From Candidatus Micrarchaeota archaeon (GTDB lineage: Archaea; Micrarchaeota; Micrarchaeia; Anstonellales; Bilamarchaeaceae): a stretch of DNA of 64,000 nt. Every line of letters starts with the position of its first letter. The first letter of the stretch is position 1. The notes below the pieces were generated by a model, which saw nothing but the letters and a program-made list of their open reading frames with translations, ran no database searches and was not told the origin of the DNA. A program made the translations under genes and the position numbers. This document shows positions 6,096 through 61,747 of the stretch, one piece after another. The stretch is taken from positions 158,542-222,541 of the forward strand of contig JBBSVO010000003.1 of assembly GCA_038046805.1 (NCBI GenBank). Reading direction: 5' to 3'.

Positions 6096-6160
6096 GTTAT
6101 ATCAAACCAACAAAGTTTTCCGGAGTTTTATCCGGTCTCTCGGCGAGGCTGGTTTGATAT

Positions 6161-6301
6161 ATGTCAAGAACGACCTATAAAACGGCAAACCGTTTTATGG
6201 TCCATTGAACGATTCGTCGTTCAATTGGACGTTTCGTTCTTGGGGATTTGAGAACCGAAAAGTTCTCAAAGTGCTCGTGATCGTTGCGACGATCGCGACA
6301 C
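6161..6301. repeat. Branched palindromic element, copy A
   Basis: Hairpins ATAAAACGG-caaa-CCGTTTTAT, ATTGAACGA-ttcg-TCGTTCAAT, TTTGAGAAC-cgaaaa-GTTCTCAAA, TCGTGATCGT-tgcg-ACGATCGCGA; homologous to 39322-39437 and 20052-20140. Confidence 0.85.
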
Positions 6302-6413
6302 TGTGAACCCGAAAAACATTTCGGGGTCGCTGTAAGCACAAAACGCGACGCAGATATTGCTGAGAACCAAGAACTCTGGACTGAAAACAGGAATATGGTG
6401 GTGCGGCCAGTAT

Positions 6414-20051: not shown

Positions 20052-20140
20052 AGAACGACGCATCGTTCTTGAGCACTTCAAAAACGACGTCTCGTTTTTG
20101 AGGATTTTAGAACGGATCGCCGTTCTAAAAGTGCTCGCGA
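20052..20140. repeat. Branched palindromic element, copy C, flanked by heptamer repeats
   Basis: AGAACGA-cgca-TCGTTCT, then GAGCACT/AGTGCTC enclosing TCAAAAACGA-cgtc-TCGTTTTTGA and TTTAGAACGG-atcg-CCGTTCTAAA. Confidence 0.8.
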
Positions 20141-39258: not shown

Positions 39259-39321
39259 AATTTTTTTTTAATATTTGTCAAAAACCACCAGTTAGAGACC
39301 TGGCTTGTTTATTTTTGACAG

Positions 39322-39437
39322 ATGTCAAGAACGACCGATAAAACTTATCGAAGTTTTATGGTCCATAAATCGATGCGTCGATTTATCGGACGATTCGTTC
39401 TTGAGCATGTTCGTGACCGATGCGTCGGTCGCGACAT
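39322..39437. repeat. Branched palindromic element, copy B
   Basis: ATGTC...GACAT termini; AAGAACGA/TCGTTCTT enclosing ATAAAACTT-atcg-AAGTTTTAT and ATAAATCGA-tgcg-TCGATTTAT; then GTGACCGA-tgcg-TCGGTCGC. Confidence 0.85.
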
Positions 39438-39536
39438 AGATCTTCCCCATAGAACTGGTGTTTCTTGGGTGACCACCAGTTACAAACTGGTGGAATATCT
39501 AGATTTTAATATTTTTAAGGAATCCGGGCGAAAAAT

Positions 39537-39961: not shown

Positions 39962-40921
39962 TCAGTGCAATCTCCGTTTGCCCCTCATTTTTTTATGATC
40001 TTCGATTATTCGATTTATCAAAAAATAAGTAAACTCCTTAAAACCACCAAAGTGGGCTTTTTCCTGTGTTTCGAAGTACTCATCTCGTTTCTCATAAGGT
40101 ATATCTAAAAATGGAAAGCCGTTGATCTGTAAAATATAGTTCATAAGCAGTCTAGCCATTCTGCCATTACCATCTGCAAATGGATGTATCGTTACCAGTC
40201 TTGCATGAAATTTCGCCGCGAGTTCTACTGGATGAATTTTATCCTTATTCTCCTTATACCAAGCCATTAATCCAGCCATTAGATTTGGAACGTCCTTCCA
40301 ATTTGGAAATTCGTATTTACTGGTGCGTATAAACACATTTACTGTTCTCCATACTCCACGGTGCGCCCCATAACCCGGAATTGCCTTAAGTAAAAGAAAA
40401 TGCAATTTTAATATCTCATTTTCTGTTATTTCAGCCCGATCTTCCAAATATCCATCATACAATTCAAGGCATTTTTCCATATTTATAACTTCAAGTTCTT
40501 CTTCATCAGCTTCATAATTTTTCTTTAGTTCCAGTATCTTTCTGGTTTGATCCAATGTTATTCTGCTTCCTTCTATTGCATTTGTATTTGTGATGAATAT
40601 TTCTCTTTGCTGCCCCAACCATGCCTTTCTACTTTTTTTATCCATCTCTTCAAATAATTTTTTATGCTCGTTTTTTATTCTTTCGAGCTTTAGCACTATC
40701 TTTCTGTCGATAAATTCAGTTTTTGACCTGATGAGCTCGTTTTCAAGATAGTTACTTACTTTTTGATCCAGTCTTTTCGCTAGTTCTTTCAGCTTAGTTT
40801 CAGCTGGCTTCACTGAACCAAGATATAAATAGATTTTTTTCCATTTTTTATCCGCTAATCTAATTGTTTTTTCAAGGTAGTAATAAGTCCTTCCTTTTAC
40901 TTTTCGTTCCGTTATTCCCAT
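39962..40921 (-). CDS. Fic family protein (class II-like) with N-terminal putative DNA-binding domain
   Basis: HPFADGNGRMAR; inhibitory motif TNAIEG; N-terminal GRTYYYL...YLG. Confidence 0.92.
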   Translation of the reverse strand: MGITERKVKGRTYYYLEKTIRLADKKWKKIYLYLGSVKPAETKLKELAKRLDQKVSNYLENELIRSKTEFIDRKIVLKLERIKNEHKKLFEEMDKKSRKAWLGQQREIFITNTNAIEGSRITLDQTRKILELKKNYEADEEELEVINMEKCLELYDGYLEDRAEITENEILKLHFLLLKAIPGYGAHRGVWRTVNVFIRTSKYEFPNWKDVPNLMAGLMAWYKENKDKIHPVELAAKFHARLVTIHPFADGNGRMARLLMNYILQINGFPFLDIPYEKRDEYFETQEKAHFGGFKEFTYFLINRIIEDHKKMRGKRRLH

Positions 40922-61584: not shown

Positions 61585-61747
61585 AAAATCATTTGCTCTC
61601 TCGACCACCACAACCTACGCAATTGTTGCGCTGCGCAACAATGCGCCCATTGTTCGTTGCGACGAACAATCGGGAAGGCAAAACGCCTTTGGCGTTTTGG
61701 TCGCCTACGGGCGACTTGTGGTTTGAAGGTCGAGGAGCAAAGGTTTT
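61585..61747. repeat. Branched palindromic element, copy D (diverged sequence, similar architecture)
   Basis: Outer stems TTTGCTC..CTCGACC/GGTCGAGGAGCAAA and ACCACAA/TTGTGGT enclose four hairpins including ATTGTTCGT-tgcg-ACGAACAAT and GTCGCC-tacg-GGCGAC. Confidence 0.75.

Follow-up and report, generated by a model that had tools for sequence, protein, structure and literature searches.

Copies A (positions 6161-6301) and B (39322-39437) of a dispersed, hairpin-rich sequence in the genome of a Micrarchaeota member, an ultrasmall archaeon, are nests, in which a 56-nt double-hairpin element, named X, sits inside the first-hairpin tip of a 58-nt double-hairpin element, named Y, at CGA^CG (the caret marks the insertion point). 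The two copies lie in a stretch of 64,000 nt from GenBank assembly GCA_038046805.1 (the window; G000:C3:158542-222541, where G000 is this genome). We interpret both as probable nests of gene-less, non-autonomous mobile DNA elements and consider it very likely that they are mobile DNA rather than an RNA gene. A sequence-only reading of the window had described A and B as homologous copies bounded by ATGTC...GACA(C/T), each with three stem pairs, and had placed them in one family of branched hairpins. The sequence reads as described: the quoted stem pairs are present in both copies, seven stem positions are changed on both sides between A and B with no one-sided change seen in the quoted hairpins, and the 4-nt loops TTCG, TGCG and ATCG were confirmed, one loop of A being CAAA. 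The copies truly run from TGTC to GACA, which places A at 6162-6300 and B at 39323-39436; the A and T outside these bounds are the usual flanking bases. The copies are related and structured as proposed, but each is a mosaic of separate modules and there is no conserved branched unit.

Copy B (39323-39436) consists of a Y element, TGTC...GACA, whose first hairpin carries X at its tip; the Y model (R2) spans 39321-39438 at 68.8 bits and treats X as an insertion. The nested 56-nt X (39335-39390, + strand; 76.9 bits with the X model, R1, and 53.4 on the − strand) was inserted at CGA^CGAT and lies between the last 5'-arm base of Y's first hairpin and the loop of that hairpin. The second Y hairpin, with loop TGCG, and the terminal CA occupy 39411-39436. 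Copy A (6162-6300; insert-free paralogue at G000:C7:17043-17141) combines a Y-type shell TGTC...GACA with a nested X and half of a third module, V. Its host hairpin begins with a 5' arm at 6165-6173, which pairs with 6234-6242 and forms the outer stem of a three-way junction. The 56-nt X follows at 6174-6229 (+ strand; R1 scores 82.4 bits on + and 60.5 on −), inserted at CGA^CGTT, and is succeeded by the original loop CGTT and the 3' arm of the host hairpin (6230-6242), as read from the sequence and the table of flanks. Between the two Y hairpins lies the second half of V (6243-6274), consisting of GGGA, a hairpin at 6247-6270 that has no counterpart in B, and GTGC. The second Y hairpin, a 10-bp stem with loop TGCG, completes the copy together with the terminal CA (6275-6300). 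A's host hairpin stands without its X guest, with the same stem and loop, at G000:C3:116398, and V occurs whole at G000:C4:105386-105451, at window positions 20074-20133 and also in the sister species (G001, genes ~90% identical). The three-way junction of both copies is explained by X being nested in the Y tip, the outer stem being the host hairpin and the two branches the guest. We folded each strand of A and B as single-stranded DNA and compared it with 200 shuffles, none of which was as good: A reached −45.3 kcal/mol (z −8.87) on the + strand and −42.3 (z −9.23) on the − strand, and B −34.8 (z −7.98) and −32.4 (z −6.28), respectively.

The modules of A and B recur throughout G000, a 1.2-Mb assembly of 16 contigs with 86% completeness and 42-43% G+C. 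Perfect hairpins with stems of at least 8 bp and 4-nt loops numbered 154, compared with 22 in one Markov control, and 9-bp stems were commonest. Hairpins with a 9-bp stem and CG at stem positions 7-8, allowing at most one mismatch, numbered 86, compared with 3, 4 and 7 in three controls. These hairpins cluster as pairs with fixed junction sequences. Y (58 nt) reads TGTC, 10-bp hairpin, GA-NCATGN-TC, 10-bp hairpin, GACA, and X (56 nt) reads CC-N, 9-bp hairpin, GG-T-CC, 9-bp hairpin, N-GGA; the hairpins of both are perfect, with 9-10 bp and 4-nt loops. A variant, X', follows the X plan with CCC...GGG and CGC...GCG junctions, and V is a further hairpin pair, observed in the Y spacer. Further copies, by which the sequence-only reading had set store, are thus many, both genome-wide and in relatives.

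Both nests interrupt other repeats. Copy A is hosted by repeat E (left part 6098-6160, right part 6301-6335), a multi-copy palindromic unit of ~99 nt with a terminal hairpin and a long-range inverted repeat of 11-13 bp, ATATCAAACCAAC...GTTGGTTTGATAT. A full, insert-free E copy at G000:C7:17043-17141 is 91% identical to the flanks of A (with A removed) across the junction, and partial copies lie at C4:16572-16605, C4:154586-154612, C8:8469-8498 and C6:230524-230548. Copy B is hosted by repeat F (39274-39322 and 39437-39513), ~130 nt long, with inverted repeats TGTCAAAAA...TTTTTGACA and CCACCAGTT...AACTGGTGG and at least six copies; no Rfam match was found around its copy in the window. Copies outside this part of the window are located at G000:C7:47954-48130, C3:59382-59506, C2:34613-34741, C9:10688-10725 and C11:44039-44087, and the paralogues C7:48038-48130 (93.7%), C3:59382-59506 and C2:34613-34741 run unbroken across the B insertion point. 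A third insertion was delimited in the leader of IS200 elements, where G005 and G006 read CCAAGAGA-AA.. and G000 reads CCAAGAGA-[58-nt Y]-AGAC.., the sequences being collinear with exactly 58 nt absent. No target duplication was seen at the E, F, IS200-leader or Y-tip sites. The base preceding TGTC is A in copies A and B and G in the insert-free paralogues; since one other E copy also has A at the junction, a preference for a preceding A suffices to explain this difference.

To define target rules, we compiled 42 distinct X copies (15 from G000 and 27 from relatives) after dropping seven of 49 rows with non-canonical ends. GA closes the left flank in 39 of these and CGA in 22; CG opens the right flank in 18. 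Relative to the non-palindromic target, X takes one orientation (39 of 42 copies). A script test placed X in the tip of a host hairpin in nine of the 42 cases; by eye, a further four were placed where the 3' arm begins, likewise at CGA^CG. A duplication of 1-2 nt (A or GA) at X would be indistinguishable from none, because (G)A stands last in the left flank and GGA last in X itself. For Y, flanks were counted by eye in the 29 cleanly parsed rows of 40, with the 11 unparsed rows excluded: A precedes TGTC in 20 and T follows GACA in 26, and five of the 29 copies lie in the centre of X or X'. Because CGA^CG is also the tip motif of the family's own hairpins, the elements land in one another, giving T-shaped or branched composites. 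Composites with Y in the X centre (TATGG^TCC) recur at at least three G001 loci and one G000 locus, and a deeper arrangement, at G001:C60 (locus L066, 1360-1605), is nested four deep, with Y holding X holding Y and a V pair in the outer spacer. The orthologous place in G000 (C2:113854-114008) has a single hairpin pair only.

The elements also differ in position between the sister species. Nine loci, picked from 34 for collinear flanks, have hairpin-element DNA in G001 and none in G000. At the A locus, G001 has 28 nt where G000 holds a 286-nt block containing A, and repeat E is missing there as well. The elements thereby explain large intergenic differences between the two species. Two loci deserve separate mention. 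At G001 locus L070, a 118-nt hairpin composite sits exactly at a downstream start codon (G000 counterpart C7:27608-27614); its last letters, TATGGC, match those of the flank, and the ATG is therefore preserved. This is the sole case resembling a 6-7-nt duplication. In another intergenic region, G000 carries X (C6:260352-260518) and G001 carries Y (locus L094), and the region appears, from the sequences compared, to be a hotspot occupied independently.

The distribution among genomes is patchy. We scored 61 related genomes with the X and Y models and found X in 21 (19 of the 36 genomes of family f1 plus G000, and one of three in f7, with none found in the other ten families) and Y in 19 (17 of the 36 in f1 plus G000, and the single f5 genome). 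Fifteen genomes contain both, six X only and four Y only, and genera within this set are split for element presence. A search for the exact X-centre pattern across 185,579 bacterial and archaeal species genomes returned 37 loci, of which 12 were confirmed by the model; all 12 belong to Micrarchaeota, Bilamarchaeaceae or an unclassified archaeon, and none of the other 25 was confirmed. The same pattern had no match in a viral contig collection. Together with the insert-free paralogous sites and the turnover between species, this patchy spread supports the suggestion of the sequence-only reading that A and B are non-autonomous elements of a kind resembling repetitive extragenic palindromes (REPs) or MITEs (miniature inverted-repeat transposable elements).

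The same reading had considered a structured noncoding RNA on the strength of compensatory changes, with the reservation that palindrome arms can be converted to the same effect. Covariation is real. Among the 15 X copies of G000, aligned with plain MAFFT (alignment A1), 93.9% of cells are paired, 14 of 23 pairs are changed on both sides and 51 cells carry both-sided changes, compared with five one-sided. Alignments A3 (X in relatives) and A4 (Y) were fitted to the models and include both strands of most copies. In A3, 99.0% of cells are paired, all 23 pairs are changed on both sides, and 345 both-sided changes stand against six one-sided among 1,353 cells; in A4, the figures are 97.7%, all 20 pairs, and 295 against 20 among 1,578 cells. 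None of 500 shuffles matched the covariation score in any of the three alignments. The stems are strictly Watson-Crick, with G-U pairs in only six of 1,353 cells in A3 and 20 of 1,578 in A4 (at most 1.3%). Both strands are matched by the models (X ~82 versus 60 bits, Y ~85 versus 81 bits). The loops mirror each other: the loop of X hairpin 1 has CG as its first two bases in 22 of 41 copies and as its last two in one, while in that of hairpin 2 CG comes last in 31 of 41 and first in one, so that the element plan is near two-fold symmetric, with a first loop CGNN and a second NNCG. From the mirrored loops and the matches on both strands it follows that the elements look almost alike on either strand, which a single-strand RNA does not predict. 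The covariation fits DNA palindromes in which the two strands stay complementary, as the reservation had allowed. Stacked DNA palindromes can therefore yield both strong 'compensatory' covariation and a branched fold, a pattern that should not be annotated as an RNA gene.

Orientation and transcript data were also considered. The genes flanking A run in the same direction, as do those flanking B; across X copies, seven are oriented with and eight against co-directional flanking genes, and others lie between convergent (seven) or divergent (five) genes. An Rfam search of the whole window brought only a tRNA to gathering score, and 6.2 kb around A and B gave no match at E values up to 1, so neither copy matches a family described there. 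In one metatranscriptome, available as contigs only, the pieces seen mapped to genes and to the E copy on C7, with none seen across A, a result from contigs that cannot show absence. The beginning of that E copy is covered by an RNA-library contig. A bulge-helix-bulge junction of the archaeal intron type was rejected, as inspection by eye of the X flanks in A showed no 4-bp helix between a pair of 3-nt bulges.

In mitochondria, mini-elements made of two hairpins have been on record since the 1990s, and to our knowledge their movement is unexplained. Mitochondrial double-hairpin elements (DHEs) are described as potentially mobile, mostly intergenic and without flanking duplications, their mechanism being unknown (PMC10085805, PMC2800124). 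The DHEs of Allomyces and Schizosaccharomyces and the hairpin elements of sponge mitochondria are closest to X and Y by architecture and behavior (PMC10085805, PMC2800124). The likeness extends to gene-less two-hairpin units of tens of bases that are multi-copy, mostly intergenic, variable between close species and free of flanking duplications. DHEs, as portrayed there, are GC-rich and organellar, whereas X and Y reside in an archaeal chromosome (42% G+C) and have AT-rich stems with a conserved CG. The archaeal set further differs in comprising at least three to four families (X, X', Y and V), in its target CGA^CG and in regular nesting. The best reading of X and Y is that of an archaeal variant of this known, mechanistically unexplained double-hairpin kind. 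An architecture of mitochondria is now seen in a reduced archaeal genome, and exact ends, an oriented CGA^CG target, clean insert-free sites, self-nesting and a patchy spread over dozens of genomes make the question of mobility testable. A wider proposition, which we regard as rather doubtful, is that X, Y and their kin form with the mitochondrial DHEs one class of two-fold-symmetric double-hairpin elements that home into hairpin tips, nest and move by one undescribed mechanism. Such a mechanism could involve an unrecognised structure-specific nuclease/ligase or a transposase-free, replication-coupled process, and no known transposase family.

The next nearest likeness is to REPs and their assemblies, the bacterial interspersed mosaic elements (BIMEs) and REPINs. 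These are short extragenic palindromes, often in inverted doublets, present in tens of copies and non-autonomous, for which a Y1 transposase of the HUH type, the REP-associated tyrosine transposase (RAYT), has been proposed as mobiliser. G000 likewise has many short extragenic palindromes, often as inverted doublets, but no single-copy RAYT-like gene is flanked by or co-occurs with X and Y, each X or Y hairpin folds alone and the doublet forms no single long hairpin, and the host is an archaeon. Palindrome-associated transposable elements (PATEs) and IS200/IS605 elements share with X and Y the lack of target duplication, the single orientation 3' of a short motif and the hairpins near both ends; they differ in that the X and Y ends are unrelated to the IS200 and TnpB ends of G000. 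Classical MITEs mobilised by DDE enzymes resemble them in short inverted ends (TGTC/GACA and CC/GG), and the target-site duplication was not seen. Some insertion sequences and small elements home into REPs or other hairpins, and Rickettsia palindromic elements tolerate insertion in repeats or genes. X and Y share this hairpin preference and this tolerance of insertion into repeats; they differ from hairpin-homing insertion sequences in that the invader is a gene-less hairpin pair of 56-58 nt and the target is the tip of its own family. In the literature covered, which excludes most subscription journals, no account of elements like these came up for Micrarchaeota or other DPANN archaea, and the accessible parts of a 2024 MITE survey (PMC11602168) and a 2026 survey of archaeal insertion sequences (PMC13343696) contain no mention of X- or Y-like elements. 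New here are the resolution of A and B into X-in-Y nests within E and F, the oriented CGA^CG target, loops that mirror each other, stems almost devoid of wobble pairs and the census of X and Y against the transposase.

As to how the elements move, several features point to single-strand cut-and-join chemistry: nothing is duplicated, insertion is oriented and falls 3' of (G)A, the right end has that same base, each end has a hairpin, and hairpin tips hold the target. On this basis, we tentatively suggest an HUH-like single-strand mechanism, as one possibility that falls short of being probable. X and Y would move as single strands. Hairpins would lay bare their ends as well as the target, and an enzyme provided in trans would cut and join 3' of the A at the left flank and at the right end, following the 'peel and paste' logic of HUH transposition in IS200/IS605. 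Stems could stay complementary through failure of imperfect copies to propagate, correction of arm against arm, or both.

Several observations weigh against mobile elements served by such an enzyme. No orthologous pair of filled and empty sites was found for A or B: insert-free sites exist for both, and they are paralogues, where the sequence-only reading had envisaged orthologous empty sites. Circle junctions, excision products and population polymorphism were likewise not observed. A candidate polymorphism at A, a joint 6160->6306 plus six other letters in two DNA runs, was rejected because its loose ends are flanks of the C7 E paralogue. At the place corresponding to the X' site of G001 locus L080, G000 (C2:25985-25999) keeps just CCCGCG, the outermost bases of that element; this may be an excision or deletion footprint and would equally fit a deletion across a palindrome. 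X and Y are near two-fold symmetric, whereas the hairpins of IS200/IS605 left and right ends are both read on one strand. No transposase was tied to X or Y. G000 encodes one Y1 transposase (HUH), the IS200 TnpA at G000:C3:134483-134830, and the ends of that IS200 (GC-rich hairpins, TTTA/TTCA loops, right end ..GTAGTTCAC) bear no relation to X and Y. Y1_Tnp (PF01797) was matched in 17 of the 61 genomes, namely nine of the 25 element-bearing and eight of the 36 element-free, from which, the genomes being related and not independent, no statistic was drawn. IS110, Y2_Tnp, Viral_Rep and Rep_1 had no match in G000 (86% complete), and controls for the last three matched nowhere, making these weak negatives. 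G000 also has one TnpB and three tyrosine recombinases of ~400 aa; no serine resolvase was found in this genome. A GIY-YIG mini-nuclease was discarded as a candidate, PF01541 having no match in G000, G001 or G020 and its 18 matches in the other genomes lying in frames of 314-592 aa, which are no mini-nucleases. Around ~115 element loci, no family of neighboring open reading frames occurred in more than four genomes.

This lack of an enzyme candidate is one reason to weigh movement with no dedicated transposase, in which the modules would spread and nest through replication template switching, or through recombination at short stretches of homology (GA, CG), and quasipalindrome correction of each arm by its partner would keep the stems perfect. 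The strict Watson-Crick pairing of the stems, nearly free of wobble, would suit this, the two bases GA close X on the right and also precede its left junction, and mosaics such as A, in which a Y hairpin and a V hairpin are apparently fused, fit as well. We nevertheless consider this explanation unlikely. Insertions are base-exact and ends are conserved in many genera, X keeps one orientation to its target (39 of 42), and whole composites recur at different loci, which is easier with an enzyme that recognises ends.

A transposase that does exist in G000 is the resident IS200 TnpA, which could mobilise X and Y in trans as PATE-like derivatives. Its presence, and the IS200/IS605 pattern of X and Y (no duplication, one orientation 3' of a short motif, end hairpins), agree with this, as does the finding that the six genomes richest in X (G000, G020, G001, G005, G029 and G012) all match Y1_Tnp, the match in G001 being partial. 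IS200/IS605 elements are also reported in >65% of Micrarchaeota genomes (PMC13343696). This role of TnpA is quite unlikely in our view. The end hairpins and right end of IS200 are unlike those of X and Y and are common instead to the TnpB element: both share a left end and the right end ..GTAGTTCAC, neither of which occurs in X or Y. These ends recur on IS200 copies of five other genera, which carry no X or Y. The guests of the G000 IS200 (C3:134360-135160, locus L031), an X' and a Y between the left-end hairpin and tnpA with the X' lying upstream of the Y, are therefore passengers; we flag this insertion into the IS200 leader. Five element-rich genomes (G009, G033, G016, G026 and G032) have no Y1_Tnp match, G033 being 93% complete, and the proportions of Y1_Tnp among element-bearing and element-free genomes given above likewise speak against it. 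An HUH nuclease as the mover and a Y1 gene flanked by copies, both raised by the sequence-only reading, are not borne out by the sole Y1 gene, which belongs to an ordinary IS200 with its own, unrelated end hairpins and had no match in 16 of the 25 genomes that carry elements. The TnpB element itself contains a Cas12f-like frame of 432 codons (G000:C6:9910-11208), with a left end GGGGGTTTAAGGGGG... and a right end ..GTGGGTAGTTCAC in common with IS200, and from its sequence looks like an IS1341-type partner of the IS200 transposase.

The hairpins might instead be retained for a host function, such as protein binding, RNA processing or stability, or bidirectional termination, with mobility secondary or past. 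Their mostly intergenic location, often 20-200 nt from gene ends, would suit this, the conserved CG in the stems and the mirrored CG in the loops suggest sequence-specific recognition, and the two-fold symmetry would be appropriate for a dimeric DNA-binding protein. Against such a function, which we judge improbable, stand the lack of conservation at orthologous sites between the sister species, the 36 of 61 related genomes in which the elements were not found, and copies inside an insertion sequence and inside each other; no RNA contig was seen across A in the one run, which being contigs cannot show absence. A family of structured noncoding RNA genes with a conserved branched fold, finally, has in its favor very stable predicted folds, strong covariation and many second loops of the U-N-C-G type (TTCG, TGCG, TACG), but is very improbable given that the branch arises from nesting with no conserved junction, the reverse strand folds equally well, G-U pairs make up at most 1.3% of cells, orientation is balanced (seven with versus eight against co-directional genes), Rfam gave no match, the A locus lacks synteny with the sister species and insert-free paralogues exist.

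Other features of the window and its relatives were noted in passing. A V-type double hairpin occupies the spacer of a Y-like shell at 20074-20133, and an X'-type double hairpin with a GCG/CCC...GGG junction lies at 61616-61676 (+ strand, 34 bits). Copy B is adjoined by a gene for a Fic-type protein with an HPFxDGNGR motif (39962-40921, − strand). The most recurrent family of element neighbors, present in four genomes at five loci, has an N-terminus that is Fic-like as judged by eye only. At G033 locus L156 (G033:C4:74609-77670), frames with reverse-transcriptase-like motifs stand beside two Y copies, and a similar frame occurs in one other genome.

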